Shown: positions 854-36,117 of the stretch, piece after piece | How the letters are laid out: every line of letters starts with the position of its first letter | How positions within the stretch are numbered: the first letter of the stretch is position 1 | Virus record (IMG/VR): IMGVR_UViG_3300043103_000108 | Location: 1 to 38,425 of that record | Length of the DNA: 38,425 bases | From: a virus | Taxonomy: Duplodnaviria > Caudoviricetes | Reading direction: 5' to 3' (one strand) | Made by a program: the position numbers and the translations under genes | The notes under the pieces: model-generated | The model's input: only the letters and a program-made list of their open reading frames with translations | Databases searched by the model: none | Told to the model about the DNA's origin: nothing

Positions 854-854
854 T

Positions 855-5072: not shown

Positions 5073-5674
5073 ACTTAATAAAGACAGTTAAACGATGGGT
5101 TGCAGGTACAGACAAACTCTTCGATATCTATGAATGTACTGTAGATGAAGTCGAAGAATATACCTCCGACTCAGGTAAGTCTATGGTGAAAGTTACTATC
5201 GGTGACACTGAGTATACAGGACTCCATAATAAATGGGTCTATGAATACCTCTGTGAAAACGAGAGTAGTCCTTCATTTGTAGTAATGTGGCGAGCACCTA
5301 AGGGAAAACCTATGGTTGCTTATGTAAAAGAAATATGGCAAGACCATATCAAGGGAGAGTATCATGAAGAAGTCCCTACCAAGACTAACGCCTACAGCAA
5401 CAGCGGTGAGTCATTTGTTTATCTTTGGTACTCCACCGCAACAGAAAAGAAATATATCGGAAAACACAAGGGAACAACTAATGATAGATATGTCGCAAGC
5501 AGTACAAGCTTTATGCAAGACTACAACGAATGTCCAGGCCTCTTCAAAAGAGTAATTTTAGCATATGGCTCTGACAGAGAAATGTTAGAACTTGAAACAC
5601 AATTACTTATTAATTTGAAAGCAAAAGACAGCCATATGTATTATAATATGAGCACAAATCTAGTTGGTACCTAA
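5069..5674 (+). CDS. protein with C-terminal GIY-YIG nuclease-like domain and unknown N-terminal domain
   Basis: FVYLW-x7-KYIGKH...Y..SS...ELE...YYN in the C-terminal ~90 aa. Confidence 0.7.
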   Translation: MNLIKTVKRWVAGTDKLFDIYECTVDEVEEYTSDSGKSMVKVTIGDTEYTGLHNKWVYEYLCENESSPSFVVMWRAPKGKPMVAYVKEIWQDHIKGEYHEEVPTKTNAYSNSGESFVYLWYSTATEKKYIGKHKGTTNDRYVASSTSFMQDYNECPGLFKRVILAYGSDREMLELETQLLINLKAKDSHMYYNMSTNLVGT

Positions 5675-5681
5675 TAGGAAA
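5661..5681 (+). promoter_or_regulatory. putative phage RNAP promoter (copy 1)
   Basis: TAGTTGGTACCTAATAGGAAA; matches four other copies at gene boundaries. Confidence 0.8.
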
Positions 5682-6645: not shown

Positions 6646-6666
6646 TAGTCGGTACCTTATAGAGAA
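6646..6666 (+). promoter_or_regulatory. putative phage RNAP promoter (copy 2)
   Basis: TAGTCGGTACCTTATAGAGAA, intergenic, ahead of the replication operon. Confidence 0.75.
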
Positions 6667-13739: not shown

Positions 13740-13740
13740 A

Positions 13741-15945
13741 ATGAATCCAACACAATATCTTACTGAACGTGTAGCCAAGGTAGTATTAAACTCAGATAAG
13801 ATCTACAATGAGGGTGCTCGTCTCCTTGCACATCACCCCACATGGGAATATGACTTAGAAAGGTTTATCAATGAATCATGGGACACACTACTTCGATACT
13901 GCATCCGTAACAAGAATGCGACACATAGCGCCTCTGTTAAACTCACTTTCGCTTCAGACCTTATCGGCAAACGAATTGCAAGAGCTATCGGAACTGATGA
14001 ACACAATATCAAATCCACTCTATCGCTTGGAGATCTTCTGCTTGAAACATTTTTACAAGACGGTCTAATTGATATCTTCCGTGAGTATGATGGTCGTAAG
14101 GCTCCATACATGGTACGGATTGTTAACCAAACAGACAACGTTAAACCCACTTTAATTGGTACTTCATTTGAACCACTACTACCTATCACTGGTTTGTATA
14201 GTCACCTTACCAAAGAACCGTTCATTAAAGGCTGGTCTAACAGTCGATTGTTCCATGAGTACCTAGACAAACCATTCATCAGGAGTTTAGAAACATTACG
14301 CCAACAGCCTTGGAAGCTTAACCTACCAGTGCTAGAGGCTATGGAAGCTACTTACCCTTCAGAAACTCTTGATTTAGTTGATGAAGATGGTGAAATCTTT
14401 GTCTACAATATTCATTATGAAAACCTTAACTTACCCAAGAAGCTTAACCACTTAGACGGTACTAAGTTCATGGGTAAGAAAGACCCTAAGCTACAACGTA
14501 TGCTAAGTAAGTACTTTGAATACAATCAAGTACTAAAGAAAGCACGACTAGTTAATGATCAAACCTTCTACCAAGAAGTTTCATGTGACTACCGTGGACG
14601 AGTCTACTATGCTGAATCATTCCTTGAATTCCAAGGTAGTGACTTAGCTCGTAGTCTCTTTTTATTTGCTAATAAAAAAGAAGTTACTGAACGAGGTTAC
14701 TATTGGTTATGTGTTCATACTGCTGCTTGCTATAACAAATCATTTACTATTGATGAGCTTGGAAGACAGGGATTCACTACTGATTATGCTTCATACTTAG
14801 CAGAAGAAGGTCTAGATACTATCTCTCTAGATAAAATGACACTAGATGATCGTGCTTTGTGGGTTCGTAACAACAAACAACTCATTGGCAGTGTTGCTCG
14901 TTCTAAAATCCTAGACCAATCAGCTGAAAAGCCTTATAGCTTTTTGGCTTGCTGTTTAGAGATTGAAGGCTACAATCAATCAAAAATTCTACGACAAGAA
15001 TATATGTCAGGGTTCCCTATCCCTATTGATGGCTCTAATAACGGCTGGCAACATCTTGCAGCTATGTCTAAGGATAAACAAGCAGGTACGTTAGTGTCCT
15101 TAGTACCTACTCCTATCCAAAAAGACTTCTATGTAGCTGTTGCTAAAGAGCTTATCACTATCATGCCTGACTGGTTTAATGAGAAACAAATGCCTATGAA
15201 GCATATCCGTAAGGGTATTGCTAAACGAGGTTCTATGACTCGTGCTTACTCAGCAGGTAAACAACGTATCGCCAAGAACATGTATGATGATTGCCACGTA
15301 GAGGGTTTTACTGTGAAGTATAACATTGACCAAGATCAGTGTGATACTCTTGCAAGTAACTTAATTAAGGCAATTAACTCTGTATGTGCTGGTCCACTTA
15401 AAACAACTAAATATCTTCAAAAGATTGCAGAACATGAACTCAACTGTAATAGAAATAACCTTACTTGGCATACTCCTAGTGGCTTCCCTGTGGTTTACAA
15501 AGCTTATCTTCAGCACGAACGCAAACAGCGAGGTACAATTCGAGGTATTACGGGAAATAAAGATGGTCGTATTATGCACGTTATTAAAGTGGATGTCCTC
15601 AATAAAGAAACTGGCGATAAAGTACCATGCCGTAGGAGTTTTGCTTCGGGCATTAGCCCTAACGTGGTTCATTCTTATGATGCTGCTCACATGGCTAATA
15701 CTATTGTTGGGTTCAACGGTAGCTTTGGTGCTGTCCATGATTCGTTTAGTACCCACGCTAGTGAAGTGGATTTTCTACAAGAAGTAACTAAGATGAACTT
15801 CATTGCTCAGTATGATACAGAGAACTTCTTTAACACTCTACAAGATACTCTTATGGAGAATAAAGAATCATTCACTTTCCCTCAACCTGAAACAGGAAAC
15901 TTAGACCTCCAAGAAGTTTATAACTCAAAGTATTTCTTTTGCTAA
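13741..15945 (+). CDS. single-subunit DNA-dependent RNA polymerase (T7/N4-RNAPII type), short N-terminal domain
   Basis: DYRGRVY..FQGSD, motif A PIPIDGSNNGWQH, motif B RKGIAKRGSMTRAYS, SPNVVHSYDA, motif C VHDSF. Confidence 0.95.
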   Translation: MNPTQYLTERVAKVVLNSDKIYNEGARLLAHHPTWEYDLERFINESWDTLLRYCIRNKNATHSASVKLTFASDLIGKRIARAIGTDEHNIKSTLSLGDLLLETFLQDGLIDIFREYDGRKAPYMVRIVNQTDNVKPTLIGTSFEPLLPITGLYSHLTKEPFIKGWSNSRLFHEYLDKPFIRSLETLRQQPWKLNLPVLEAMEATYPSETLDLVDEDGEIFVYNIHYENLNLPKKLNHLDGTKFMGKKDPKLQRMLSKYFEYNQVLKKARLVNDQTFYQEVSCDYRGRVYYAESFLEFQGSDLARSLFLFANKKEVTERGYYWLCVHTAACYNKSFTIDELGRQGFTTDYASYLAEEGLDTISLDKMTLDDRALWVRNNKQLIGSVARSKILDQSAEKPYSFLACCLEIEGYNQSKILRQEYMSGFPIPIDGSNNGWQHLAAMSKDKQAGTLVSLVPTPIQKDFYVAVAKELITIMPDWFNEKQMPMKHIRKGIAKRGSMTRAYSAGKQRIAKNMYDDCHVEGFTVKYNIDQDQCDTLASNLIKAINSVCAGPLKTTKYLQKIAEHELNCNRNNLTWHTPSGFPVVYKAYLQHERKQRGTIRGITGNKDGRIMHVIKVDVLNKETGDKVPCRRSFASGISPNVVHSYDAAHMANTIVGFNGSFGAVHDSFSTHASEVDFLQEVTKMNFIAQYDTENFFNTLQDTLMENKESFTFPQPETGNLDLQEVYNSKYFFC

Positions 15946-15989: not shown

Positions 15990-16010
15990 TAGTCGGTACC
16001 TAATACCAAA
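15990..16010 (+). promoter_or_regulatory. putative phage RNAP promoter (copy 3)
   Basis: TAGTCGGTACCTAATACCAAA upstream of the RNR gene. Confidence 0.75.
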
Positions 16011-16034
16011 CAATAACAACACAACAAGGACTCC

Positions 16035-17903: not shown

Positions 17904-18279
17904 AACAGGATTCCCTGAGGGTCTCTTACAAGATGATTCTCGGGGCTTATCTAAATGGTTTGCAAGCCGTATAAATGCCCGAGAGACTGTCCGTAATGTA
18001 TTTAGAAAGAAACCAATGAACAAGCTAATTAAAGTATCAACTGACTGGTGTAATCCTTGTAGGATTATGTCTGAAATTCTTAGAGACATTGATCTTGAAG
18101 GTGATTTTAATACAACACTAGAAAACATTGATGCAGGTCAAGATAAAGAAATTTTGGTTAAACACCAAATTCGTAGTGTACCTTTCTTTATTTTAGAAGA
18201 TGAATATGGTGGTGTCATTCGTACCCACCAAGGTGCAATGACACTAGAAAATACTCGTAAATTTTTAGCTGGAACCTAA
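17887..18279 (+). CDS. thioredoxin (Trx domain begins at ATG 18016; possible 43-aa N-terminal extension)
   Basis: WCNPC active site, IRSVP cis-Pro motif. Confidence 0.85.
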   Translation: MGAKFKTGFPEGLLQDDSRGLSKWFASRINARETVRNVFRKKPMNKLIKVSTDWCNPCRIMSEILRDIDLEGDFNTTLENIDAGQDKEILVKHQIRSVPFFILEDEYGGVIRTHQGAMTLENTRKFLAGT

Positions 18280-18286
18280 TAGGAAA
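18266..18286 (+). promoter_or_regulatory. putative phage RNAP promoter (copy 4)
   Basis: TAGCTGGAACCTAATAGGAAA overlapping trx stop; precedes the ncRNA/tRNA block. Confidence 0.7.
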
Positions 18287-18290
18287 CAAA

Positions 18291-18506
18291 TAGCTCCGCT
18301 CGACTCAGCGAGGATTACACAACAGATGTAGCGTACTTACTACATTTGGGAGCCTAACAGAGTCACCGAATACGCGTCCTAATCAGACCAGCCAGCGCTC
18401 TTTGGCGGAACCCAAAAGGAAAGAGAAACTTAGTGGCTAATCCACTTGATGAGTGGTGTCGTTGGTGAAATACTAAGAACGAGTATGGGTTACCTCTCAT
18501 GCTCAC
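18291..18506 (+). ncRNA. candidate structured non-coding RNA
   Basis: ~220 nt with no convincing ORF, GC-richer than flanks, several helices and loop complementarities, between promoter and tRNA-Asn. Confidence 0.5.
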
Positions 18507-18510
18507 ATAT

Positions 18511-18586
18511 TCCCCAATAGCTCAGTTGGTAGAGCACAGCACTGTTAATGCTGGTGTCCGCGGTTCAAGCCCACGTTGGGGAGCCA
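18511..18586 (+). tRNA. tRNA-Asn (GTT)
   Basis: TCCCCAA/TTGGGGA acceptor stem, CAGCA-CTGTTAA-TGCTG anticodon arm, GGTTCAA T-arm, CCA end. Confidence 0.93.
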
Positions 18587-18595
18587 AGAACAAAT

Positions 18596-18682
18596 GGATT
18601 TTGAGCAGCATTGGCGACTGCAGCAGACTGTAAATCTGTAGCCCTTAGGGGCAACTAGGTTCGACTCCTAGAAAATCCACCA
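18596..18682 (+). tRNA. tRNA-Tyr (GTA)
   Basis: GGATTTT/AAAATCC, GCAGA-CTGTAAA-TCTGT, long variable arm, GGTTCGA, CCA. Confidence 0.92.
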
Positions 18683-18688
18683 AACAAA

Positions 18689-18766
18689 CTGTGTGTGAGA
18701 AAGCCTGGTTAATCTACCTGCCTTGGAAGTAGGAAATCGGTGGTTCAAATCCACCCACACAGACCA
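18689..18766 (+). tRNA. tRNA-Pro (TGG)
   Basis: CTGTGTG/CACACAG, CCTGC-CTTGGAA-GTAGG, GGTTCAAATCC, CCA. Confidence 0.92.
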
Positions 18767-18770
18767 ATAT

Positions 18771-18844
18771 GCGGCGTTCGTTCAGTGACAGGACTGTGGA
18801 TTCCAAATTTGCTAACGGAGGTTTGATTCCTTCACGCTGTGCCA
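18771..18844 (+). tRNA. tRNA-Trp (CCA), atypical
   Basis: GCGGCGT/ACGCTGT, GTGGA-TTCCAAA-TTTGC (GU-rich), T-loop TTTGATT, CCA end. Confidence 0.7.
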
Positions 18845-18876
18845 GTAAATATTTTTTTAAACCACAAGGAAACAAC

Positions 18877-19035
18877 ATGAACATTAAATTCAGCCCCGAA
18901 GAACTCAATTTTATTCAACAAGTTCTAGGCGAATTGCCAACTAAGACTGGTGCCTTTATGGTATTACAAAGTATCAATGCACAAGTAGCAGAACAACAGC
19001 AATCTAAGGATGACGCACCAGCAACCCCAGAATAA
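18877..19035 (+). CDS. small phage protein
   Basis: AAGGA RBS; MNIKFSPEELNFIQQVLGELP...; the longer ORF-track version overlaps tRNA-Trp. Confidence 0.7.
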   Translation: MNIKFSPEELNFIQQVLGELPTKTGAFMVLQSINAQVAEQQQSKDDAPATPE

Positions 19036-19112
19036 GAGTCATTAGCTCAGTTGGATAGAGCAATACCCTTCTAAGGTATTGGCCAGTGGTTCGAATCCAC
19101 TATGACTCACCA
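19036..19112 (+). tRNA. tRNA-Arg (TCT)
   Basis: GAGTCAT/ATGACTC, ATACC-CTTCTAA-GGTAT, GGTTCGAATCC, CCA. Confidence 0.95.
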
Positions 19113-19123
19113 AGGACACAAGT

Positions 19124-19213
19124 ATGGATGATACCATTGAAGATTACGAATTAAATTTACCTTATGACCCTATCCATGAGTCATCATGGGATACGTTCAA
19201 TCAAGAGGATTAA
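19124..19213 (+). CDS. tiny acidic peptide (29 aa)
   Basis: AAGGA RBS; MDDTIEDYELNLPYDP... Confidence 0.4.
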   Translation: MDDTIEDYELNLPYDPIHESSWDTFNQED

Positions 19214-19214
19214 T

Positions 19215-19337
19215 ATGAGTAAAGGTTCAGGACGTCGTAATGAGGACGCCGATAAAGTAAGAAACAACTGGGATGCTATCTTCGGCAAAAAAGATAAACC
19301 CGAAGAAAAGAAAGAACAAGATGACACCAAAAAATAA
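19215..19337 (+). CDS. small phage peptide (40 aa)
   Basis: GAGGA RBS; MSKGSGRR...NWDAIFGKK pattern recurrent in phages. Confidence 0.65.
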   Translation: MSKGSGRRNEDADKVRNNWDAIFGKKDKPEEKKEQDDTKK

Positions 19338-19782
19338 AGATGCCTTAGTATCCGCACTGCGATGTTTGTTTGCAGATAACTTTGTAGTGTATTACAAGGC
19401 TCATGGCTTCCACTTCAACGTTCAAGGGCAAACATTCTCTCAAGACCATGCCTTGTTAAATGAGATCTATGACTACTTATACGAGAATCATGACTCTCTT
19501 GGCGAACAAATTAGACAGCTAGATAAGCCAGCACCTACCACATTGAAGAGTATTCTAAGTGTAAGTGAGATTGATGAAGAAACTGGTGTGGTTGATCTAC
19601 CAAACAAACAGTTAGAAGCTTTAGCAGATGACTTCACTACTTTACTCCGTAATGGTCAATGGGTTTACGAAGAAGCTGGGCGCCAATGTGTTGGTGGTTT
19701 AGAAACTTATATTGGTGACTACCTTGCTGGTCTATCTAAGCTTAACTGGAAAGTTAAAGCTACATTGAAACGGAGTCTATGA
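19321..19782 (+). CDS. dps: Dps-like ferritin-family protein
   Basis: HGFHFNVQGQTF..DH...EIY...DSLGEQIRQL ferroxidase signature. Confidence 0.85.
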   Translation: MTPKNKDALVSALRCLFADNFVVYYKAHGFHFNVQGQTFSQDHALLNEIYDYLYENHDSLGEQIRQLDKPAPTTLKSILSVSEIDEETGVVDLPNKQLEALADDFTTLLRNGQWVYEEAGRQCVGGLETYIGDYLAGLSKLNWKVKATLKRSL

Positions 19783-20063
19783 TGAAATCTTATAACATGG
19801 AAGCACTACGTGGTCATAACTATGATGATCATGAATTCCAACAAGACATGGCTAAATCAGGTGTACATATCCCTGACAACTTATTGTACAAGCCTGAGAT
19901 GAATGCGTTTGTAATTAATGAAATATACAAACAAAATATTAACGGACTTCCTACGGTAGTCAACGATAAAACAAACAGAAATTATACGCCTGAAGAGGCT
20001 AAAGAAGAAGCCGATACCCTTCGGAGTGCTGCCTTGCAAGCACACAAGCTATTAACAGCTTAA
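19779..20063 (+). CDS. hypothetical protein
   Basis: GGAG RBS; last gene of the + arm. Confidence 0.7.
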   Translation: MMKSYNMEALRGHNYDDHEFQQDMAKSGVHIPDNLLYKPEMNAFVINEIYKQNINGLPTVVNDKTNRNYTPEEAKEEADTLRSAALQAHKLLTA

Positions 20064-20109
20064 AAAAAATAACCCCTACTAGGATAATTCCTAATAGGGG
20101 TTTTTATTT
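20062..20109. terminator. bidirectional rho-independent terminator between convergent arms
   Basis: A-run, AACCCCTACTAGG-ATAATT-CCTAATAGGGGTT, T-run. Confidence 0.9.
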
Positions 20110-20111: not shown

Positions 20112-23100
20112 TTAAGTTACGTTGTAAACTTTACCTTGATTGGCTAACTTTTTAACTTTAGAATTAGCGCGATTACGAGCTGCTTTATAATCAGTCTTTT
20201 TTGTAACACCGTTCCACCTCTTTAAATCAGAGATCAAGCCTTTATAATTCATAAGTTGCTTAACAGTATTAATAAATTGAGCATCTTTAATAAAGTATTG
20301 GTCAGGTCTGCTATCTTTAGGTTTCCAACCTGAATTATTAGAATTTAAAAATTCTTTAAATTCCTTTTGCTCAAGTGATAAATCACCTTTAAGATAAGAA
20401 TATTCACGATCAAGTGTTTGCAAGAAACCTTTGTATTCACCCTTATCACCAATAGAAACTTCACCACCAAGACTACGTATTTCGGTTACACCTTCAGCAA
20501 ATTGCTTTTCAAAGTCTTTAACAAACGCATCTACCATATCCCACTCAATTACTCTTGGTAAAGCAATGTTGTTGATAGCGTATAGCATTAATGGGTAAGA
20601 CTTAGAATTAAGAATTAAGTTATCAAACACAGGAGTAAACGGTAACATATCTGCTGGCTGTTTACCTTCGTTGAAGTGTCGAATAGCAAGAGACAACATA
20701 ATTGACTCACGATACTGGCCAAAAGCTGGGCCAACTTGGTTAATAGCTGCTGAACCTGGGCCTGGAATTACAGGATTACCGAATTCATCTTTAGTGCCTT
20801 TGTCTTTAGCTGCAGACATAGGGTCAAACACAGTAATGTTTGTGTTAATTTTACGAGCCTTGCTACTATTTTTGTTTTTGATTTCAACAGATTTACCCGA
20901 TTCAATAGAACCAAAACGACCAAAGCTTAATTCTTCACCAAACATTCCGATAGGATGTGGCACCCTATCAAACATTTGAAGTGTAGCTACTGTCTTTTTA
21001 GGTGTAGTGAACTGCCACTCTTGCAACGCTGTTTTAACAGTGTTCTTTAAGATATTATTTAAATCATACACCAACCAGTTCTCGTTACCATTATACTCTG
21101 CTGATTCAAGCATTTCCTGTTTAAACTCAGGATATTCTTTTAAGAAAGCACGAGCTTCATCGGTGTGGAAAGCAGAAGCCTTACCATAGCCAGTGGTTAA
21201 GAGAGTTTTCTTAGCAAATTCTTTATTGAATTGACCTGCTCCTGCAACGTTAAGGCCACCAAATTTATCTAACTTTTCTTTCCAAACAGCAGACTTTTCT
21301 AAATTGTCAGGCCCAAATGTAGTATCAATACTCTGTGCCTTAGCTACATCAGTAAAGTATCTACGTGGATCGCCTTCAGGTACTGTATCTTGAAATTCAG
21401 CATCACTTAGATTTTCCCAGATCAATCCTACACGAGATAAAATATCTTCATTGCCAATATCAGAGGCAAGGAACATCAAACCAGCTGAGTTAGCGTCAAT
21501 AGCTACCGTAACTTTAGGATTAAATCCTGTGTTATTACGTTTAGCTTCTAAATAGTCAGCTGCGTCTACGTAGGCTTGTAATACATAGCCCCATGTTTCT
21601 CTGTCACCTTTACCTGTAGCTAAGTCACCTACCTTAGCCAAAGCTTTTTGTTGTGATGGGTCTAACTTAGTAAAGTCAGCAGTAGCCATGTTGTTTAGCA
21701 AGTCACCTTTAGTTGTAGGTACAATGCTCTTAAGGATACTACCAATGAAAGCTGCTTCTTGAATAAATGCTGGTGTAACTAAGGTAAGCATTTCAGGGAA
21801 CAACATCTGTTCAGTCTTCATACCTACTTGAGAGCCTACATCAAGAACTCTACCTAATGTACCTAAGAAAGATAATTCTAATTCTTTAGGTGATAAGTTA
21901 GTGTTCTTAGCCTTAGCCATATCACCAATACGATTCCAAAAGTTATTAGCAGTTTCTAGGTTAATACCTTGAGTATGGTATTGAGTAGACTTATCCATTT
22001 GAAACACAGGTGAAACAAAAGATTCAGCAGCACGAGTATACTTATTACGCTGAGAATTAAATCGTGGATCTAAGTAAACACGGTGAGTAGCATAGTCTTC
22101 CCATGCAGGAGTAACGTAAGGTTGTCCTAAAGCAATTTCATTAATGTGATCATCACGTTCTTTAATTAAGTCAGTAACCTTATCTTTAATAGCTTTAGCT
22201 TCAGGAGTTAGTTCACGTACTTTAATTTTAGATGTTGGCTTAAAATAGTCTTGACCAAAAGCGTTAAATGCGTCATCAGCATCTTTACGACTAATCTTAA
22301 AGAGATGTAGTACATCTAAACCTTGTGAGTTAGATGGGTCAGCTAATTGCTGCATCAAACGGTTTAAGAATAAAGAACCAATGTAGCCTTTACCTGCACC
22401 AATGTGCTTGTAAACAGAGCCTACAATTCGCTTGGTCTCTGCCATTTCAGGTGTAGCTTTGTATTTGTTTTTCTTCTTATCACCTGTACGAACGTTACGA
22501 GCAGCACCTACCATTTCACCTTTAGAAGTTACGGGTACACGTTGCTTTTGGCCTGACATAGCCGTGTTCATAGCTTTACCCATAGCACGGGCTGTCATGT
22601 ATCGCTCATGGCCAAAACCGGGAGCTAATCTAACAATCTCTGCACCATCTTCTGTAACGTCTTCTACTAAATGACCTGAATCAATTTCAGCTTGAAGCGC
22701 AATAGCACCAGCTTCCTCTGTACTAATGTCTTGTTGGGGCATAGTTGAAGGATCAATAGGCTGGTTGTTCTCATCAACAGCAGAACCACGAGCAAGCTTT
22801 TTCATTAAACGACCGTAGTACTTAGCTACTGAGTCTCTTGCCATACCACCTTCAATGGCCGTCATATCAACAGAACCTTCACCATCATCACGAAGAAGGT
22901 CATTAATAGAATCATAGCCGTAATCTACATCGGTAGATTCAGCGTTAGCTACTACAGGGCCATTGCCAGCTGAAGCTGCACCAGATAACATAGGGCCAAT
23001 TAAAATACCTGCCATGTTAACTACGTTAGCAGTAGATGCAGTAGACGTGTTTAAACCTTGCTTAAGGCGAGTCATAGCTGACAATTGAACAGCAGTAGGA

Positions 23101-23648
23101 GATGTACTGTCACGTAAGGTAACAGTAGTATCTGCTAGTGTTTCGCCAATCATCTTAGAAGCACGTTGAATAGTACCCGCTTGTGTTGGTTTAGCTGCGT
23201 CAGGGAACGCTTCACGAAGCTCAGAGATAGTGTTCCAATCTTTATTAAGAGGACTCATCAATGAAGCTTGTGTACTACGTTCCTGCTCATACATGCTACG
23301 AATAGTGTCTGGATCTGTGATCTCATTACCACGAGCATCCATTAACTTAGTAGGCATACCTTCCATTACATCACTAAAAGGTGATGGGTTATATTCAGGT
23401 GCTTTAACACCGGGAGCTGAAAAAGAAGAATAATCTTCCTCAGTACCCATTTCAGGTACATACCCTGCGCTAGAGGTTGACTGAGTATTCTCAGGAATAT
23501 CAGCCATAGCGTTGTCTCTACGAGCAGACATCACTTGGTCGCTTAAAGAGGGAACAGCTGGTTGCTGTTGTTTAATTTGATCCTCAAGAAACTTGTTACC
23601 AAGGTTTAATTCTGGTACGCCAGCACTGGAAGGAATGTTAATAGCCAT
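20112..23648 (-). CDS. divergent single-subunit RNA polymerase, putative virion-packaged (N4 mini-vRNAP-like)
   Basis: In order: EDYATHRVYLDPRFNSQRNK, VAIDANSAG (motif A), KEFAKKTLLTTGYG (motif B), VGPAFGQYRE, PVFDN (motif C); follows ejection-protein genes. Confidence 0.75.
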   Translation of the reverse strand: MAINIPSSAGVPELNLGNKFLEDQIKQQQPAVPSLSDQVMSARRDNAMADIPENTQSTSSAGYVPEMGTEEDYSSFSAPGVKAPEYNPSPFSDVMEGMPTKLMDARGNEITDPDTIRSMYEQERSTQASLMSPLNKDWNTISELREAFPDAAKPTQAGTIQRASKMIGETLADTTVTLRDSTSPTAVQLSAMTRLKQGLNTSTASTANVVNMAGILIGPMLSGAASAGNGPVVANAESTDVDYGYDSINDLLRDDGEGSVDMTAIEGGMARDSVAKYYGRLMKKLARGSAVDENNQPIDPSTMPQQDISTEEAGAIALQAEIDSGHLVEDVTEDGAEIVRLAPGFGHERYMTARAMGKAMNTAMSGQKQRVPVTSKGEMVGAARNVRTGDKKKNKYKATPEMAETKRIVGSVYKHIGAGKGYIGSLFLNRLMQQLADPSNSQGLDVLHLFKISRKDADDAFNAFGQDYFKPTSKIKVRELTPEAKAIKDKVTDLIKERDDHINEIALGQPYVTPAWEDYATHRVYLDPRFNSQRNKYTRAAESFVSPVFQMDKSTQYHTQGINLETANNFWNRIGDMAKAKNTNLSPKELELSFLGTLGRVLDVGSQVGMKTEQMLFPEMLTLVTPAFIQEAAFIGSILKSIVPTTKGDLLNNMATADFTKLDPSQQKALAKVGDLATGKGDRETWGYVLQAYVDAADYLEAKRNNTGFNPKVTVAIDANSAGLMFLASDIGNEDILSRVGLIWENLSDAEFQDTVPEGDPRRYFTDVAKAQSIDTTFGPDNLEKSAVWKEKLDKFGGLNVAGAGQFNKEFAKKTLLTTGYGKASAFHTDEARAFLKEYPEFKQEMLESAEYNGNENWLVYDLNNILKNTVKTALQEWQFTTPKKTVATLQMFDRVPHPIGMFGEELSFGRFGSIESGKSVEIKNKNSSKARKINTNITVFDPMSAAKDKGTKDEFGNPVIPGPGSAAINQVGPAFGQYRESIMLSLAIRHFNEGKQPADMLPFTPVFDNLILNSKSYPLMLYAINNIALPRVIEWDMVDAFVKDFEKQFAEGVTEIRSLGGEVSIGDKGEYKGFLQTLDREYSYLKGDLSLEQKEFKEFLNSNNSGWKPKDSRPDQYFIKDAQFINTVKQLMNYKGLISDLKRWNGVTKKTDYKAARNRANSKVKKLANQGKVYNVT

Positions 23649-23652: not shown

Positions 23653-26600
23653 TTATTCTCCTAATTCTTTTTGTAAATATTTAGCCAAGGCGGGACTTGT
23701 TCCAACAATAGGAAGCAACCTGGCACCCTTCTCAATTCGTTTCTCTTCTGGAGCAGATAATACTTCATTGAGTTTATTAATAAAAGCTAACTGAGGTGAT
23801 TGATCAGACAATTGATTATACACTTGCCCTAACACACTATTAGCTTTCTTATCACCCCCAAACATTGGTGATACGCTATCCCATACACGTTGCCCTGTGC
23901 CAAGTAAGCCTACTTGACCAATTAAACGCTGGAATTCTTTATCTTCTTTTAGCCACTTAGGTGGGTGTTCATTATACTTGATCATATCTTTAATATACAA
24001 AGCTAACATAGACAATGCAAACATCATAGCGATAGTTGCTGCTGCGTTACGTTGATCGTCAGAACCTTTCTTACCCAAGTCACCTAAGAGTCTTGGTAAT
24101 GTAGTAGCTGTAAATGTAGATGTATAACCTTGGAATTGAGTAAACAGTCGTAAGTAAGGATCACTATAGAACTTCGGTCTGTTAAGTTGTGAAGGAACTA
24201 CTACTGCTTCGTTAACAAAGTTGTATGCACCAGCCTGTAAGTTAGCTAGTACTCTCTGCTCATTTTGAGGAGTATCTTTATCAATGCTAGTCATAAAGTC
24301 TAAATCAACACCAATACGAATTAAATGTTCTTTGGCATCTTGAATTTGTTGTGGAGTAAATGTACCTTTACCTTGAGCAACATCAACCCAATGGTTAATA
24401 GCATCAGCAGCAATAGATAATTTAGCATGACGAGTAATAGCAGTAATAGAAGTTAAACCTGTTACTTTAAAGAAGCCTTCAGTCCACTTTTGAAAGTATC
24501 CTGAAAGAATATCATTACGAGTACCAATACCACCTTCTCTTAAGAAGCCAGCCTCAGACAATTCCCTACGGTGCTTAGATGCTGTAGAATTTTTCATTCC
24601 AAATGATTCGCCTAACTCTTTAAACAACGAACCAAACTCTTTACCAAAAGTATTAAGTAAGATACGAGTAGCTTTAATCGATTGAGGGGAATTCAAGTTA
24701 CGATATACCTGAGCAAATTCTACTGTAGAACTTACTGCAGCTAAGGGTAGTGAAGTGACTGTTGATAAGAAGTTAACTAAGTTCAATGCACCACGAGCAT
24801 ATTCATTAGTAATAGGATTGTACTTACCAGCTCTCATATCTAGAAAGTCTTTAATTTCTCTAGCCATGAATGAAGCTTCTTGCTCAGTGATCTCACCTTT
24901 GTTTAGACTGTCTTGTAGTAGCGTAGCTAACTTAGAGCCGTCTTTACCAATGAACTGTTTGTTAGTAGCAACAGCAGAACCCTTAGCAGCTAATGTATAA
25001 GCATTATCTAACAAGTCTTGAGACATATACTGAGCAAACTTAGCTTTAATCTCAGGATTATTAATAGCCTTTTCAACCTCTGCTTTACCTTTAATACGGT
25101 TAGCATCAGGGTTAAGCCATTCATCTATCGAGTCTTCTACGCTATTAACATCACCATTGTTAAGTACTGACTGTGCCATCATAGAAGCTTCTGCTTGGCT
25201 AATACCAAACGCATCTTGGATATCTCTAGTAAACTGATTAAAGTTTTTAGATACAAGAGTTTTATCTAGTGGTCTATTAGCAATAAAGGATGCTACAGAA
25301 AGATCACTACCGGTAGCTCTGTTGTAGTCATTGATTAAGTTATCAATCTTTGCAGCATAAAGCAAAATACCTTCTTTATGAACAATATCTTGGCCTAAAT
25401 CTGCATCAATATCTAACCTATCAAATGAGCCTGTAAGTCTGCGTTGACGTACTAAACGATCAATAACACTTACCACGGTTGGCTTAGCTAATATAGTAGA
25501 AGCTTTTGAGGTAGTCATTCCACCAAAAGCAGACTGCATTTCTTCTTTATTACCAAAGTTTTTAAAGATATTAGCTTCAAGGATATCTTGTGTTTCATCA
25601 ATAGACATACCGTTAATTGCTCTTGTAGAACCAAGCAAGGTGCTTAATGCAGCTAACGCTTCACCTGAATAGTCTTTACCCTTCATAATCACAGTAGACC
25701 ACTTACCGAACAAAGAGCTTAATCCTTTATCTTTCATAAAGGAACCTGTTTTAGATACAACACCCTCAATAGCTCTTTTAGATGTTTCTAATTCAGCTAA
25801 CTTTTCTAAGCTAGGAGTGTCTGAAGTAGAACTAATGTTTTTCTCTGCTTTAATAATAACTTCTGATACAGTAGGGATATTAGTAGTACCAAATCTTTCT
25901 TTGTATTGTTCACGGAATTGTAAATCAGTACCCTCACGAGTAGGTGAACTTGAATTAGCTAAGGTAGCTACCGTACGACCAGCACCTGACAGACCACCAC
26001 CTAAGATAGCGCCACCAGCCATGGCATTCATTGTACGATTTTGTAGTTTATTCCAATCTTCCTTTGACTCAGGGATAGCTACTGTTTCACCTAAGTATCC
26101 AGCAATTTCTTGTAGACCTTCCGTGATACCTTCCGAAGCAGAACCCTTAGCTATAGCACCAGCAATAGCAGCTGGTCCTAAGTTTTGTTTCATAGCAACA
26201 GAACGCATAGCGTCTGATACATCCTTAATTGCTTCTTGAGTTGACCTAATGATCATCTTTTCAGCAGCTTCAGCCGTAACACCTCGACCCATTAGTTCTT
26301 TAACTACCATAGCTTGAGTAGCTTTGTCAGTAATTTTTAATGCAGCACCTGAAGCAATACCACTCAAACCTAACTTATCGAGCGCAGCTTGAGTAACACC
26401 TGACATAATAGCTGCTGTAGCATTCTTTTCTTTCTGAGCGTTCCATACCTGTCCTGTGTAGGTAGCTACAGGGACAGACATCGAGGCACCACCTGTCATA
26501 GGTGAAGCCATAGTTGCTACAATAGACGTAACCATTTGGGGAGCAGAAGCAGCAGCAGTACCTACTGAGTAGTCAATTACTTTGCTGAATGAATCTAACT

Positions 26601-27444
26601 TCCAGTTACCTTTATCATCAAATGCTTCAGGACTCTTTAAGTAAGGGAGGTCTCTTAGGATAGACTCTTGTTGTTTTATATTTCTCTTACCTAATTCTTC
26701 TAAATAGCTTATACCTGTTTTAGTACCAAGCATATCAATAGCACCAAAGAAACCTTGCTTAGTATTAGCCATACCAATATCTAAGCCTGTATCCCAGTTG
26801 CTAGTTGCTTTACCATAGCGATCTTCGCCGGGTCTGATAATAGCAGGACCAGCAAAATAGTCACTTGACGTACCTTCACCTACAGCTGCACCAAACTCTT
26901 TAGCAGTAGTAGTAAACCGTTTAGCCATTACACCACCTTGATTACGTTCAACGTTCAAGTCTGTGAGTAACTTATCAGCAATAGTTTGAGTACCTTCGGC
27001 TTGTCGCTTCGCACGATCTAATCTCCCAAGGTACATTGAATTAAGTTGATCACTAGTAACCGATGTTGAAGGATCAACATAGCCAGACTCTAGTAATCGG
27101 TTAGATAATCTACGACCGTTAGCATCAGTTAATTCACCAAGGTTACGATTATAAACGTCTTTGTCTGTGCCAAGAACCGGATTAGTAAACCCTTCTTGGT
27201 TAATAATATCTCTCACTAAGCCTGTTTGTGTGTCGGCTCCCAACTGAGGGGGTACAAAGCCATCTTCCTTTAGTTTGCCTGACTCGCGAGCGTTAATACC
27301 CGGCACTCTTAATGTAGTGCCTGTATCAAGCTGCATAGTGTCAGCATCCTTTAAAGTACCAGCTTCAATCTTAAAGTTAGAGGCTTTAGGGATATCTTTT
27401 GAATTGATTCCTAACTCCATTAGTGTCTGTTCTAATTTATCCAT
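23653..27444 (-). CDS. large internal virion/ejection protein with N-terminal SNase-like domain
   Basis: DADT..LRVPGINARE..DVYNR..LLESG at the N-terminus; Ala/Gly-rich hydrophobic helices; FTQFQGY in C-terminal region. Confidence 0.7.
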   Translation of the reverse strand: MDKLEQTLMELGINSKDIPKASNFKIEAGTLKDADTMQLDTGTTLRVPGINARESGKLKEDGFVPPQLGADTQTGLVRDIINQEGFTNPVLGTDKDVYNRNLGELTDANGRRLSNRLLESGYVDPSTSVTSDQLNSMYLGRLDRAKRQAEGTQTIADKLLTDLNVERNQGGVMAKRFTTTAKEFGAAVGEGTSSDYFAGPAIIRPGEDRYGKATSNWDTGLDIGMANTKQGFFGAIDMLGTKTGISYLEELGKRNIKQQESILRDLPYLKSPEAFDDKGNWKLDSFSKVIDYSVGTAAASAPQMVTSIVATMASPMTGGASMSVPVATYTGQVWNAQKEKNATAAIMSGVTQAALDKLGLSGIASGAALKITDKATQAMVVKELMGRGVTAEAAEKMIIRSTQEAIKDVSDAMRSVAMKQNLGPAAIAGAIAKGSASEGITEGLQEIAGYLGETVAIPESKEDWNKLQNRTMNAMAGGAILGGGLSGAGRTVATLANSSSPTREGTDLQFREQYKERFGTTNIPTVSEVIIKAEKNISSTSDTPSLEKLAELETSKRAIEGVVSKTGSFMKDKGLSSLFGKWSTVIMKGKDYSGEALAALSTLLGSTRAINGMSIDETQDILEANIFKNFGNKEEMQSAFGGMTTSKASTILAKPTVVSVIDRLVRQRRLTGSFDRLDIDADLGQDIVHKEGILLYAAKIDNLINDYNRATGSDLSVASFIANRPLDKTLVSKNFNQFTRDIQDAFGISQAEASMMAQSVLNNGDVNSVEDSIDEWLNPDANRIKGKAEVEKAINNPEIKAKFAQYMSQDLLDNAYTLAAKGSAVATNKQFIGKDGSKLATLLQDSLNKGEITEQEASFMAREIKDFLDMRAGKYNPITNEYARGALNLVNFLSTVTSLPLAAVSSTVEFAQVYRNLNSPQSIKATRILLNTFGKEFGSLFKELGESFGMKNSTASKHRRELSEAGFLREGGIGTRNDILSGYFQKWTEGFFKVTGLTSITAITRHAKLSIAADAINHWVDVAQGKGTFTPQQIQDAKEHLIRIGVDLDFMTSIDKDTPQNEQRVLANLQAGAYNFVNEAVVVPSQLNRPKFYSDPYLRLFTQFQGYTSTFTATTLPRLLGDLGKKGSDDQRNAAATIAMMFALSMLALYIKDMIKYNEHPPKWLKEDKEFQRLIGQVGLLGTGQRVWDSVSPMFGGDKKANSVLGQVYNQLSDQSPQLAFINKLNEVLSAPEEKRIEKGARLLPIVGTSPALAKYLQKELGE

Positions 27445-27458: not shown

Positions 27459-30137
27459 TTATTTCTCAAGACTCTTTCGAAGAGTCTCAGTAGCAAATTG
27501 ATAGAAAGCAGTTTCAGTAGATGTACCACCAAATCTTTCTCGTAGTTTAGCGCTCTTTGGGTTAGCCCATACTTGATGTAACCTTTGGATTTCACTTACA
27601 GCTTGTGCTTCGTTTGGTTTACCATTATTACTTGCAGCTGATAAACGGCGAGCCATTTGATTTAAACCTTCAATCTTTTCAGGATTCATAGGTTTATCTT
27701 TAGTTAACATCAAAGCACTTGGATCAATACCTATGCGCTGTGTAATAACATTACGAGCTAAATAAGGCTCAATGCTGTTAGGTTTAGCACCAGAATTCTT
27801 ATCAGCAAGCATATCCCTAGCAGCATTACTCATTAACAAACGAGCTTCCTGCATTTGTTTTCCATCTTCTAAGTTAAAACCAATATTAGAGAAGTAACTA
27901 CCTGCTTGAGTAGCAATCTCAGGAGCAGTAGGCATACCCTGTCTATTAGGGTTTGCTTTACCTTTTACGTTGCTAGCACCTAATTCAGCTTCAAGAATAC
28001 TCTCAGCAACTTTAGAAGCAGCTTCAACGTTTTTAGATTGACGTTCTGTTTTACCAGTTACCCCATGAGTAGTTTCACTAAATGGAACTAATGATAAGCC
28101 TTGTTTTTGTAAAGCATCTAAGCGAACTTCTTTACCATCAACTACAGCTACTTCATATTTAGAACCTTTATTTTTACCTGTCTTCTCTTCAACGGTATGA
28201 ACAACAATAGGTCTGTTATACATAGCAGGGTCAGTAGACATCATAGTACGAGATTCACCACTACGGATTAGTGTTTGTCGTGGAGAACCTAAATCAGCAG
28301 CCTTATTAGTTTCAAAGTATTTCTTAATAGCGTCAGGACTGTATCCCTCATCAATAAGTTTTGTAGTAAGAGCACGTCTATCTTGAGCAAGAATAGTTTC
28401 TTTTTGACGCTCATCTGAACGATCTTGTACTTTCATCTGTTGTTCAAAGCCTTGTTGACGGGCATAACGAGCATCGGCTTGAGCTAATGTATCACGACCA
28501 GCAAACCTTAGTGCTTGATTAGTGTTGTAGCCTAACAGCTTACTAGCAGAAGCTTCTAAAGCAAACCGAGTTAAGTCTCGTTCATTAAAGATACCTGTTG
28601 GACCATATACATTCTCAAAAATACGAGTTAATAAGGTCTTCTTTTCTTCAGGAGCAGTCTTAGATGCAATAATAGAATCAATTTTATTGTTAAACTCTTC
28701 ATCTTTAGATAAATCCTTAGCGTACTCAGCAATACGAGCATCACGATCAGCAATTACTACAGGTGAACCTTCAGGTAATGGGCCTCCCTTTTTAAACTCT
28801 TTATATGCAGCAGCTAAGCGTACTTGTTCAGGGTCAGCAGGTTTAGGGTCTAAGCGCGGCTGAGGGATAGCTCCTTTGCGGGAATATGGATTAGCATCCG
28901 CAATAAACTCTGCATTAGTTTTACCTTGTAAGTTAGGGTTAATTCTAATAGCTTCAGAACTTAAAGCTAACGGTGCATTAGGATCTCCATTAAAGATATT
29001 AGCATAACCACCAGCACCTACTACCCATGCTTTACGAATAGCTTCTTCTGTAGGTACAATACCTTTAGAAGTTAATTGTTTAGATAACACTTCTTTGTAA
29101 GCATCACGACCCGCTTGTTGACCTTGAGCTGTAGTTCTATCAATAGACTTTAATGCAGGGTTAAGTAACACAGCATCTTTCCAAGCGTTATCTGTCATTT
29201 GGTACAAACCACGAGCAGAACTATTTGGGTTTTTAGCGTTAACATCACCACCACTTTCTTGAGAAACTACCCAAGCGTCTTCACCAGTAGGCTTAGAGAA
29301 TACAACAGGTTGTTGAGCTGCAGGTGTTGGAGGCACTGCAGATACTTCCTTAATAGATACAGGTTTAGGTTGACTCTTTTTAACGGGCATTGCTTCTGGA
29401 ATCTCACCAATTACATTACCCATAATGTCTACCTCAGGCATAGGCCCTGCAACTTGAACACTTTGTGAAGTCATTGCAGGTACATCTACAGGTGTATAGC
29501 CTACAGGGAGTTCGCCTGTAAAATTAGTATTAATTTGTAGTGGTTCAACTTCTTCATCACCTACTTGTAAGTACTGCACATTAGTAGTACCATTAGACAT
29601 AGTAGCAGCGCTATCTGTGTGGTAGTAGTTAGACGTTACATTAGGAATTGATTCAGAACCAATAGCATAATAATCAGGAACACTAGGAGTGCCCATAGCA
29701 TACTGTTTAGCACGACCTTCTTGAACCATCTGTTTAATCATTGGTTTGTTCTTAGGATCTTGAGCAGCAGCACGAGGAATAACAGCCTCACCGGGAGTAA
29801 GCATAGCAGGAACGGTATCAGTACCTTTAGGAAGCATACGTTGACCTCTGCCAAGTACTTCAGTACCTGCTAGTGGGTTCATTGAAGGTAGTCCTAACTT
29901 CTGGCGGTTAACACGCTTAGAAGCACCTAGAGGACCACCCATTTCTTTCATCTTTAAACCATGAACTTCTTCTTTATGACCAATACCTTGGTTAGCTTTA
30001 GCAGCAGCTTCTTGAAGCTTAATTTCATGTAGTTTGTTTTTACGGCTTTCTTCTGATTCCATCTTAGCGGATTCACGAGCTTCTTTTGCTTGATGCTTAA
30101 GCCATTCTCTTTGTTGTTTACCGGATAGTGGTCCCAT
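27459..30137 (-). CDS. internal virion protein with lytic transglycosylase (SLT/lysozyme-like) domain
   Basis: ESGGDVNAKNPNSSARGLYQMTDNAW; GTDTVPAMLTPGE motif. Confidence 0.8.
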   Translation of the reverse strand: MGPLSGKQQREWLKHQAKEARESAKMESEESRKNKLHEIKLQEAAAKANQGIGHKEEVHGLKMKEMGGPLGASKRVNRQKLGLPSMNPLAGTEVLGRGQRMLPKGTDTVPAMLTPGEAVIPRAAAQDPKNKPMIKQMVQEGRAKQYAMGTPSVPDYYAIGSESIPNVTSNYYHTDSAATMSNGTTNVQYLQVGDEEVEPLQINTNFTGELPVGYTPVDVPAMTSQSVQVAGPMPEVDIMGNVIGEIPEAMPVKKSQPKPVSIKEVSAVPPTPAAQQPVVFSKPTGEDAWVVSQESGGDVNAKNPNSSARGLYQMTDNAWKDAVLLNPALKSIDRTTAQGQQAGRDAYKEVLSKQLTSKGIVPTEEAIRKAWVVGAGGYANIFNGDPNAPLALSSEAIRINPNLQGKTNAEFIADANPYSRKGAIPQPRLDPKPADPEQVRLAAAYKEFKKGGPLPEGSPVVIADRDARIAEYAKDLSKDEEFNNKIDSIIASKTAPEEKKTLLTRIFENVYGPTGIFNERDLTRFALEASASKLLGYNTNQALRFAGRDTLAQADARYARQQGFEQQMKVQDRSDERQKETILAQDRRALTTKLIDEGYSPDAIKKYFETNKAADLGSPRQTLIRSGESRTMMSTDPAMYNRPIVVHTVEEKTGKNKGSKYEVAVVDGKEVRLDALQKQGLSLVPFSETTHGVTGKTERQSKNVEAASKVAESILEAELGASNVKGKANPNRQGMPTAPEIATQAGSYFSNIGFNLEDGKQMQEARLLMSNAARDMLADKNSGAKPNSIEPYLARNVITQRIGIDPSALMLTKDKPMNPEKIEGLNQMARRLSAASNNGKPNEAQAVSEIQRLHQVWANPKSAKLRERFGGTSTETAFYQFATETLRKSLEK

Positions 30138-30138: not shown

Positions 30139-30579
30139 TTAAATCCATTTCATTTGTTTAGCAAGTAATAAAGCACCTACGCCCCAGCCTACTGGACCCA
30201 TTGCAGCTAGTGTTCCTGCTTCAGCAGCTGCAGCACCAGTACCCGCGGCAGTTGCAGCAGTAGATGCTAATGCAGCACCCTCAGTAGCGGCAGCAGCAGC
30301 GCCACCTACCTCAGCGGCAGTTGCAGCAGTAGTGGCTGTAGTAGCACCCCCTGCTAACGGTGCAGTAGGAGTCATAGCTTTAACACCAGCATTAATCCCC
30401 TCATTAGCTGCCCTATTAACAAGGATTTGTTGAGCCATATCACCTACACCGGGAGGTGCTTGAGAGATCTGTGGTTGTTGAGCATTAGTTTGAGGTACTT
30501 GCAGGGTATTGTTTGTTTGTGGAATAGAAGGAACACGAGGTTCTTCTTCAGCCCAAGCCCAAGGGTCTTGATAAGCCAT
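30139..30579 (-). CDS. Ala/Gly-rich ejection/pilot-like virion protein
   Basis: Low-complexity A/T/G stretch, MGPVGWGVGALLL tail; TAATG coupling. Confidence 0.65.
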   Translation of the reverse strand: MAYQDPWAWAEEEPRVPSIPQTNNTLQVPQTNAQQPQISQAPPGVGDMAQQILVNRAANEGINAGVKAMTPTAPLAGGATTATTAATAAEVGGAAAAATEGAALASTAATAAGTGAAAAEAGTLAAMGPVGWGVGALLLAKQMKWI

Positions 30580-30764
30580 TATTTACCTCCCATACCTTTT
30601 GATTCAGTAACAGGTGGTGTTACAGGCATTGGTTTAGCCATCATGTCTTGATAAGATTGTCCTTGAGGTGCTACAACGTTTGTAGGAGCCATTAAAGGAG
30701 AAGGTGTTTGGGGAGCAGCATAACCATTTGCAGCGCTCAACCCACTAACATTAATTCCAGCCAT
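30579..30764 (-). CDS. small Pro-rich virion-associated protein
   Basis: GGAGGT RBS; ends GGK like the upstream gene. Confidence 0.6.
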   Translation of the reverse strand: MAGINVSGLSAANGYAAPQTPSPLMAPTNVVAPQGQSYQDMMAKPMPVTPPVTESKGMGGK

Positions 30765-30766
30765 GA

Positions 30767-31447
30767 TTATTTACCTCCTGATACAGCAGATTGTCTTGCT
30801 GGATTACCAAACACAGTAGAAGCATAACGTTGTAGACCTTGCCAACCAGCATCAGCTTGAGCTTGATCAATGCCACGTTCTTGAGAACCTAACTCAGCTA
30901 ATGTTTTAGCAGTACCAGTAGCCATAGAACCAGAAGAACCTACAGAACCACCTAAAACTTTCTCAGCTTCTAGTCTGTTCTGGAACATTTTATTTTCGTA
31001 GTCAGCATCTACTTTAGCTAACTCACCTGTGGTAGCTGCATTTTGAGCACCTTGCATAACAGCTTGTCGAGCAGAACCTAATGTTCCCGTTTGACCAAAC
31101 TGAGTATCCATACCCGCTACTTTCTTTTGGGCATCAAGAATAATACCTTGCTTCTGAGCAGCTAATACGTCAGCACTAGGCGCATCAGCCATACTAGTAA
31201 GTCTTTCTTGTTGAGCTTGTAGGGTATCTAAACCACGAGCACCTGCAGTGCCTACCGCTGAAGCAGCACCGCCAAAGGCTTGAGTTTGTAAGTTAGAAGG
31301 GCCAGCTACTCGGCTTAAGTTACCTGACTCAAACTGGGTTTCTGCTTGACCAGTAACTTTCTCGATAGAAGGTCTCATCCATTCGGGGATAGACTCTACC
31401 TTGGTTGTACTACCACCACCACCCGCACGTTTTTTAATTAATTTCAT
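30767..31447 (-). CDS. putative DNA ejection/internal virion protein
   Basis: GGGGSTT..IPEWMRP N-terminus, GTLGSARQA, Q/A/G-rich. Confidence 0.7.
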   Translation of the reverse strand: MKLIKKRAGGGGSTTKVESIPEWMRPSIEKVTGQAETQFESGNLSRVAGPSNLQTQAFGGAASAVGTAGARGLDTLQAQQERLTSMADAPSADVLAAQKQGIILDAQKKVAGMDTQFGQTGTLGSARQAVMQGAQNAATTGELAKVDADYENKMFQNRLEAEKVLGGSVGSSGSMATGTAKTLAELGSQERGIDQAQADAGWQGLQRYASTVFGNPARQSAVSGGK

Positions 31448-36096: not shown

Positions 36097-36117
36097 TTTC
36101 CTATTAGGTACCGATTA
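36097..36117 (-). promoter_or_regulatory. putative phage RNAP promoter (copy 5)
   Basis: Reverse complement TAATCGGTACCTAATAGGAAA, directly upstream of phoH. Confidence 0.8.

Follow-up and report, generated by a model that had tools for sequence, protein, structure and literature searches.

Virion RNA Polymerases and the Locus under Study

The structurally characterised virion RNA polymerases (vRNAPs) are two, both of them giant proteins (PMC13434306). Those of the Schitoviridae have 2,842-3,820 amino acids (aa) (PMC10654107), and that of phage N4 has a 1,000-aa N-terminal domain and a 1,400-aa autoinhibitory C-terminal domain (PMC13434306). The DNA analysed here, hereafter the window, is the whole IMG/VR record IMGVR_UViG_3300043103_000108 (Caudoviricetes; 38,425 nucleotides, nt), and the gene in question, RNAP2, encodes a free-standing homologue of single-subunit RNA polymerases (RNAPs) that has neither of these flanking domains, and whose aligned family members measure 1,010-1,438 aa. 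A first-pass annotation had proposed the polymerase core as a stand-alone gene, and this state is found family-wide. The window lacks the head genes and the genome ends, both of which were therefore studied in relatives. It also encodes a second RNAP of the ordinary T7 type (RNAP1), a Pol-A DNA polymerase, an exonuclease and a primase-helicase.

Taken together, the sequence comparisons make it probable that RNAP2 is a free-standing RNAP of the N4 type, which would be packed with the ejection proteins, injected, and used to transcribe the DNA that enters first.

A Divergent Polymerase Family

The 1178-aa open reading frame (ORF) reported by the first-pass annotation is present, and the four motifs it had named were located in the translation, each at its assigned position and in the order known from T7-family RNAPs (Table 1). 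Homologues were collected by a word search (15 proteins) and a full HMMER scan (146 clusters), and the alignment (n = 106) comprises the query and 105 long members, approximately 15-78% identical to it, fragments and one 1,696-aa member being left out. Only R523, D718, G741, Y821 and D1009 are invariant, and four of these five columns correspond to the DxxGR arginine, both catalytic aspartates and the motif-B tyrosine. Conservation of the two aspartates, which had been suggested as a check, is thus complete (106/106 each). Since the homologues were chosen by a profile of the query's own clade, conservation is partly circular, but the coincidence of four of the five invariant columns with polymerase motif residues is not a product of that circularity. 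In the DxxGR motif the arginine is kept by 106/106 members and the aspartate by just 48/106. The Lys-x7-Tyr-Gly pattern of motif B is kept (at position 813, 102 members have K and 4 have R; Y in 106; G in 101), and the change upstream of it, previously read as an R>K swap, is in fact a loss of the arginine, this position being occupied by K in 61 members, D in 29 and R in 1.

A structure model built from 14 sequences (predicted local distance difference test, pLDDT, 69.6) retrieves yeast mitochondrial RNAP, N4 mini-vRNAP and T7 RNAP as top rows of a Foldseek search of the PDB (E-values, E, 2.7e-10 to 6e-9), and again matches RNAPs in a viral library. With VIA, Z is 16.8 against T7 RNAP (root-mean-square deviation, rmsd, 4.5; 482 residues aligned), 15.9 against yeast RNAP and 13.4 against N4 (rmsd 8.7; 710 aligned), and residue 1178 is superposed on the last residues of T7 RNAP. 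The fold comparison with T7 RNAP and N4 mini-vRNAP that had been called for therefore returned both. Among the matches listed in either PDB fold search, all are RNAPs and none is a family-A DNA polymerase. Because of these fold matches and the invariant motif residues, RNAP2 is regarded as a polymerase homologue, almost certainly with a polymerase fold and an intact catalytic centre.

Ordinary searches pass this protein by: it has no match in Pfam (E<=0.1), PHROGs (E<=0.01) or PDB sequences (E<=10), nor by tblastn in 50,697 phage records, and profile searches of PDB sequences with the RNAP2 family gave sub-threshold rows only (profile A3: mitochondrial RNAP, E 0.5). In the ESM Atlas the top clusters are "hypothetical", followed by PF00940 clusters at 0.92 and 0.91. 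Within the family, 6/40 members match the core of phrog_2206 (virion RNAP; E 2e-16 to 9e-7), 8/40 match phrog_414 more weakly (best 3.8e-8), 30/40 match neither, and 2/40 relatives pass the PF00940 cut-off. One member matches the vRNAP of Salmonella phage TR2 (E 5e-3), and the family profile scores 34 bits on the vRNAP core of this Schitovirus versus 6.5 on T7. In hhalign comparisons, the profiles A3, A4 and A5, which stand for the whole family and two subclades, reach E 8e-7, 2e-5 and 3e-10 against the N4 plus TR2 core, versus 2e-4, 1e-3 and 0.2 against a depth-matched RNAP1 pair. The tail after motif C has 140-249 aa in the RNAP2 family, 155 in the N4 core and 71 in T7. By these comparisons the family appears best placed beside the N4-type vRNAP core, closer to it than to the T7 types. 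Subclade A2, that of the window, has firm links with both other subclades (E 2e-57 and 2e-31).

A cultured phage also carries this gene. Protein gp33 of Roseobacter phage CRP-7 (MK613349; 1235 aa, 0 Cys), annotated as hypothetical, belongs to the RNAP2 family, scoring 181 bits on the family profile versus at most 5.4 for 200 shuffles.

Association with the Ejection Proteins

In a survey of 62 viral loci, which represent three RNAP2 subclades and include some near-duplicates, RNAP2 lies directly behind a gp16-like gene (homologue of the 1263-aa gene of the window) in 49/50 loci with the upstream ORF in view (17/18 and 32/32). RNAP1 was found in 57/62 loci, three of them by whole-contig search, and the remaining five contigs stop short of its position. 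The proposal that RNAP2 is the last gene after the ejection-protein genes is borne out by this survey; these had been counted as three, and there are actually five cysteine-free genes (226, 61, 146, 892 and 1263 aa). The longest of the 146 RNAP2 matches has 1,696 aa and appears, by eye, to be one expanded polymerase. No fused form was seen, there being no relative of 2,084-5,000 aa among 7,985 candidates, which is weak evidence; scanning for loci with P0097 or P0129 as single proteins gave no result. In the window, the ribosome-binding site of RNAP2 inside the upstream gene and the gap of 4 nt between the two genes suggest that they are translationally coupled.

The amino acid composition of RNAP2 is that of its ejection neighbours. 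The family contains 19 Cys in 129,581 residues (0.015%), with none in 93/106 members, the window protein (0/1178) included; at the same loci the ejection neighbours have 0.01-0.06% Cys, and RNAP1, the DNA polymerase and the primase 1.47%, 1.72% and 1.93%. Zero Cys in 1178 aa would arise by chance with a probability of 4e-9 at the rate of RNAP1, and of 7e-6 at 1%. Cys suppression marks the ejection proteins of Schitoviruses, where it has been ascribed to passage through the periplasm (PMC11445570). Moreover, in three between-clade pairs of loci RNAP2 has diverged to 22-23% identity and the gp16-like protein to 27-30%, whereas RNAP1, primase and DNA polymerase remain 77-86% identical. Taking into account the Cys depletion, the constant position next to the gp16-like gene and this co-divergence with the ejection block, RNAP2 is very probably an ejected virion protein. 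Its virion and early role would find further, indirect support in the T7-like promoters being given to RNAP1 and in the lack of a suitable promoter, for either the host enzyme or RNAP1, at the putative entry end.

In L058 versus L087, L073 versus L085 and L065 versus L096, the ejection block and RNAP2 belong to two distant clades and stand on much the same replication module (22% versus approximately 80% identity). Module exchange or very fast evolution would produce this pattern.

RNAP1, Promoters and the Putative Entry End

A 16-bp T7-like promoter motif occurs five times in the window (0.3 expected; 0/100 shuffles), on each arm oriented with transcription. It is common to relatives G001-G003, and is replaced by another motif in G004/G005 and by a third in CRP-7. 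The specificity loop of RNAP1, whose nearest cultured relative is CRP-7 gp30 (31.5%), is identical in the window and G001-G003 and altered in G004/G005; that of RNAP2 already differs between G001 and G002/G003. Because the motif varies with the RNAP1 loop and not with that of RNAP2, it has been assigned to RNAP1, which is likely the enzyme that reads these promoters.

A putative entry end of the genome has been placed in the relatives. Just past the terminase start, 9/10 of them have a stretch of 119-720 nt in which A makes up 1-6% of the early strand. It starts at, or close to, paired C-runs resembling those that N4, ICBM1 and LUZ24 carry at their left ends; owing to this likeness the putative entry end was set at the C-run pair. 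Six control phages show no such stretch (in five of them the lowest A content per 100 nt within the first 3 kb is 11-19%; in Vibrio phage VPp1 it is 12.5% per 200 nt). The adenine-poor tract holds conserved ORFs with ribosome-binding sites, written nearly without A. In CRP-7, G012 and G013 these ORFs are homologues of one another (E 4e-39 and 1e-7) and weakly related to an early gene of normal composition in G002/G003 (E 1e-4); gp72 of CRP-7, annotated on the opposite strand of the tract, is probably a composition artefact. G/C-only palindromes in the tracts are below the shuffle means in several genomes, not in G002/G003.

A strand without A leaves no room for a -10 box, and in 8/9 genomes the interval from the C-run pair to the first ORF has no TAnnnT core. 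In the first 2.6 kb of seven genomes there are 5 sigma-70 matches versus 4.0 expected, none above 10/12, the same scan giving two each in VPp1, LUZ24 and T7 and none in N4 and LIT1; sigma-70 and terminator counts in positions 1-20000 of the window are at or below chance. We infer from the sequences that the adenine-poor end may be tied to RNAP2. The first T7-like promoter copy lies 1.9-2.8 kb inside the putative entry end in 6/6 genomes. The RNAP1 gene is 15-22 kb away from that end, so that something else must start transcription.

Behind the first RNAP1-type promoter there is an AT-rich stretch (G001:C1 36503-36620; G003:C1 9351-9480; likewise in G004 and G005). In T7, the primary origin consists of a promoter followed by an AT-rich stretch, and by analogy this one is a candidate replication origin.

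Proposed Role and Its Alternatives

In the mechanism proposed, RNAP2 would be made late, together with the ejection block, and packed into the head by means of its disordered N-terminal arm or of the gp16-like protein. It would be ejected unfolded behind the channel proteins, through the periplasm, and refolded in the host, where it would transcribe from the genome end, in most relatives a gene-bearing stretch with almost no adenine, before RNAP1 exists. This transcription would probably help to pull the DNA in, and RNAP1 would then take over for the middle and late genes. By analogy with N4, it is likely that the first genes are transcribed by RNAP2. The arm itself (approximately 150 residues) is predicted to be disordered and consists of P/Q/S/T/E/D for 48%, the N4 linker preceding the core (62%) being alike in make-up.

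Several observations weigh against this reading. At one locus (L019, 1729-4451), the exception to the fixed gene order, RNAP2 is in two ORFs in different frames, from an assembly error or a real break, and the upstream ORF was not matched. The motif-B arginine (T7 R627), present in T7, N4 and TR2, is gone in the family (1/106). The pLDDT of the model is only 69.6 overall and falls below 50 at the DxxGR motif, and its Foldseek TM-scores are 0.3-0.4. The window's subclade shows no preference for N4 over T7 (hhalign E 0.08 vs 0.001). At the putative entry end, G007 carries RNAP2 and no adenine-poor stretch. In 5/9 genomes the 250 nt upstream of the C-runs contain an exact TATAAT, so that the first genes could be read from a host promoter if the genome in fact extends beyond the C-run pair. 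Scanning for sigma-70 sites is a weak test, as it also gives 0 for the host-dependent ICBM1. When the first 3.2 kb of seven genomes were scanned for simple perfect stems, no N4-type hairpin promoter common to them emerged. Finally, the reading does not account for the passage of transcription to an RNAP1 gene that lies 15-22 kb inside.

Some of these points fit another role for an ejected RNAP2, that of chiefly a DNA-pulling motor or a primer-maker at the genome end, with host RNAP making the early mRNAs, the RNAP1 message among them. In phiKMV-like phages the early mRNAs are made by host RNA polymerase. The TATAAT boxes, the distance of the RNAP1 gene, the lost arginine and the failure of the hairpin scan to yield an RNAP2 promoter class all speak for such a role, and a motor function has been proposed for the vRNAP core of phage DEV (PMC11445570). 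Nevertheless, G011 and G012 have neither a TAWWWT upstream of the C-run nor a TAnnnT downstream of it before the first gene, and sigma-70 matches in the seven genomes stay at chance level, against two each in VPp1, LUZ24 and T7. We consider this role unlikely, though it is the most probable of the alternatives.

The late-arm position of the gene, where late products of any kind are encoded, and the absence of a transmembrane segment (maximal hydropathy 1.52) would also suit an unpackaged, cytoplasmic polymerase, acting late on T7-like promoters or priming replication or packaging; such an enzyme is improbable in view of the complete lack of Cys, the co-divergence with the ejection gene and a promoter motif that follows the loop of RNAP1. 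Even less probable is a family-A DNA polymerase, or a polymerase fold that is catalytically dead and has been retained for its structural place in the ejectosome. Motifs A, B and C are common to family-A DNA polymerases, and the lost arginine and fast divergence could reflect a dead enzyme; against both stand the invariance of the two aspartates, the tyrosine and the DxxGR arginine at 15-20% identity, the exclusive presence of RNAPs among the rows listed in both PDB fold searches, and a DNA polymerase that the phage encodes itself.

Features of the Window and Neighbouring Genes

The positions of the features are collected in Table 1. For the gp16-like protein (residues 161-1263 folded, pLDDT 67.9) the best match is a chain of the PhiM1 ejectosome (E 0.016, probability 0.85), the T7 core protein ranking lower; a wide search was uninformative (Z<=7). 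Its Gly/Ala-rich, helical middle part has a weak likeness to the N-terminal domain of N4-type vRNAPs (hhalign E 6e-5). That the 1263-aa gene corresponds to the C-terminal domain of N4 vRNAP was considered and is unsupported (hhalign E 0.16; no N4 chain among the matches listed). The N-terminal 160 aa (26965-27444, minus strand) faintly match a PHROG endonuclease (E 0.017), and by eye they have the look of what we take to be a staphylococcal-nuclease domain.

Other late-arm genes (35408-36974, minus strand) encode PhoH, an M15 peptidase lysin and an Rz-like spanin. On the early arm, 16035-19782 (plus strand) encodes a class II ribonucleotide reductase, swapped for a two-gene set in several relatives, a thioredoxin and a Dps/ferritin-like protein. 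The last ORF of this arm, facing RNAP2 (19779-20063, plus strand; 94 aa, cysteine-free), keeps its place in the full contigs examined; its one PHROG match is faint and to a family annotated as unknown.

Table 1. Location of RNAP2, its motifs and associated features (window positions unless a relative is named)
Feature	Position	Strand	Basis
RNAP2, free-standing single-subunit RNAP homologue, 1178 aa, no Cys	20112..23648	-	ORF, motifs, fold, conservation
DxxGR-equivalent motif WEDYATHRVYLDPRFNSQRNK	aa 516-536, nt 22041-22103	-	R523 invariant, Q533 92/106, R539 105/106
Motif A VAIDANSAG, catalytic D718	aa 715-723, nt 21480-21506	-	D718 106/106
Motif B KEFAKKTLLTTGYG	aa 809-822, nt 21183-21224	-	K813 102/106, Y821 106/106, G822; upstream Arg absent
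Motif C PVFDN, catalytic D1009	aa 1006-1010, nt 20619-20633	-	D1009 106/106; FD as in N4
N-terminal ~150 residues, candidate packaging/tether arm	23199..23648	-	poorly conserved, pLDDT mostly <50
Predicted long beta-hairpin aa 911-942 at the specificity-loop place, putative role	20823..20918	-	predicted secondary structure; no promoter matched
AGGAG ribosome-binding site of RNAP2, inside end of upstream gene	23658..23662	-	sequence
Hairpin with flanking A-run and T-run between converging arms, bidirectional-terminator-like	20062..20109		read by eye
gp16-like ejection protein, 1263 aa, cysteine-free	23653..27444	-	fold match to PhiM1 ejectosome chain
Putative ejection protein, 892 aa, cysteine-free	27459..30137	-	transglycosylase match phrog_4067, E 1.6e-8
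Three small cysteine-free genes (146, 61, 226 aa) heading ejection block	30139..31447	-	Cys count
RNAP1, ordinary single-chain T7-type RNAP, 734 aa, 12 Cys	13741..15945	+	PF00940, E 1.4e-56
T7-like promoter motif copy (class given to RNAP1 by covariation)	5661..5676	+	motif scan
T7-like promoter motif copy	6646..6661	+	motif scan
T7-like promoter motif copy (reference)	15990..16005	+	motif scan
T7-like promoter motif copy (3 mismatches)	18266..18281	+	motif scan
T7-like promoter motif copy, late arm	36102..36117	-	motif scan
Nearly adenine-free stretch	G001:C1 ~33680-34150	+	composition
Nearly adenine-free stretch	G012:C1 ~35700-36270	-	composition
Nearly adenine-free stretch	G013:C1 ~170-720	-	composition
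Nearly adenine-free stretch	MK613349 ~57360-58080	+	composition

Significance

If the proposed role is correct, RNAP2 would represent a third, compact and free-standing kind of virion RNAP, present in common aquatic phages, and injected transcription would not need a polyprotein. It would also offer a handle on the origin of the N4 enzyme, and would explain how an RNAP gene 15-22 kb inside is switched on. More speculatively, and with the odds against it, a widespread aquatic lineage may keep the parts of the N4 giant enzyme as separate genes (a membrane-channel ejection protein and a natural mini-vRNAP), in a state either sister to the Schitovirus vRNAP or preceding its fusion. On this view the genes of the leading end would have been recoded to avoid A, the first transcript needing almost no ATP, and this end could have neither a host sigma-70 -10 box nor restriction sites that need adenine on both strands; the injected RNAP2 and the adenine-free leading end would then form a host-independent, restriction-proof entry module exchanged between phages as a unit.

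A survey of N4-like viruses discarded proteins below 2,500 aa (PMC10654107), a cut-off at which the RNAP2 family would have been dropped. A search of the literature, mainly of journals open without subscription, brought up no account of either this family or the adenine-free end. The membership of CRP-7 gp33 and the nearly adenine-free, gene-bearing stretch at the putative entry end of 9/10 relatives are new here. Since CRP-7 is cultured, the idea is directly testable. The 146 clusters of divergent single-chain polymerases constitute a pool for biotechnology, and the promoter classes with their RNAP1 loops a natural set of orthogonal polymerase-promoter pairs.

Comparison with Known Systems

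T7 and mitochondrial RNAPs (PF00940) give the best Z-scores, and RNAP2 resembles them in being a single chain, in a T7-like aromatic C-terminal foot and in a hairpin predicted at the place of the specificity loop. However, it is only 10-13% identical to them, approximately 300 aa longer, cysteine-free and encoded on the late arm, and the window protein has no PF00940 match; the T7-like role in this phage is held by RNAP1.

In CRP-7 the gene order is the same, gp35-gp34-gp33 facing the gp30 RNAP. Its gp33 is approximately 19-25% identical, with Arg in place of the motif-B Lys and IHD in motif C. In its description ORF30 is the sole RNA polymerase named (PMC6918029). Vibrio phage VPp1 and similar two-arm podoviruses also have converging arms, and VPp1 gp14 is the homologous last ejection gene (E 2.6e-23 with the 1263-aa profile); in VPp1, however, no RNAP is annotated, a 61-aa ORF stands alone behind gp14, and the early end has sigma-70 promoters and no adenine-poor stretch.

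An N4-type core in its own ORF, as in RNAP2, has been reported for Shigella phage pSb-1 and Alteromonas phage AD45-P1. These are single genomes whose split has been taken as calling errors or read-through (PMC10654107), whereas the free state of RNAP2 is family-wide.

N4 gp50 and its Schitoviridae counterparts (mini-vRNAP, PDB 2PO4, 3C3L and 9PNQ; DEV gp71 and TR2) are like RNAP2 in predicted fold and core size. The earlier statement that N4 has FD in motif C was confirmed on the N4 record (IFDG), and RNAP2 shares with the N4 enzyme this FD, the long tail after motif C, the lack of Cys and a family-level sequence kinship. Its place is also the same, the last gene of the ejection operon on the late arm, facing the replication arm. 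The differences are nonetheless numerous: the gp16-like gene lies separately upstream and the motif-B Arg is absent; the Schitoviridae motif A, ExDGxxxG (PMC10654107), is not fitted by AIDANSAG of the window, although 19/106 relatives do fit it; the second RNAP of N4 is a gp15/gp16 heterodimer, while RNAP1 is a single chain (705-818 aa across loci); and the RNAP2-bearing genomes are of 58-63 kb, the simple stem scan of the ends of seven of them yielding no N4-type hairpin promoters. Thus, by analogy, RNAP2 likely works like N4 vRNAP, but stands outside its class by its size, which is one third of that of the N4 protein, by flanking domains, the ExDGxxxG motif and partner enzyme.

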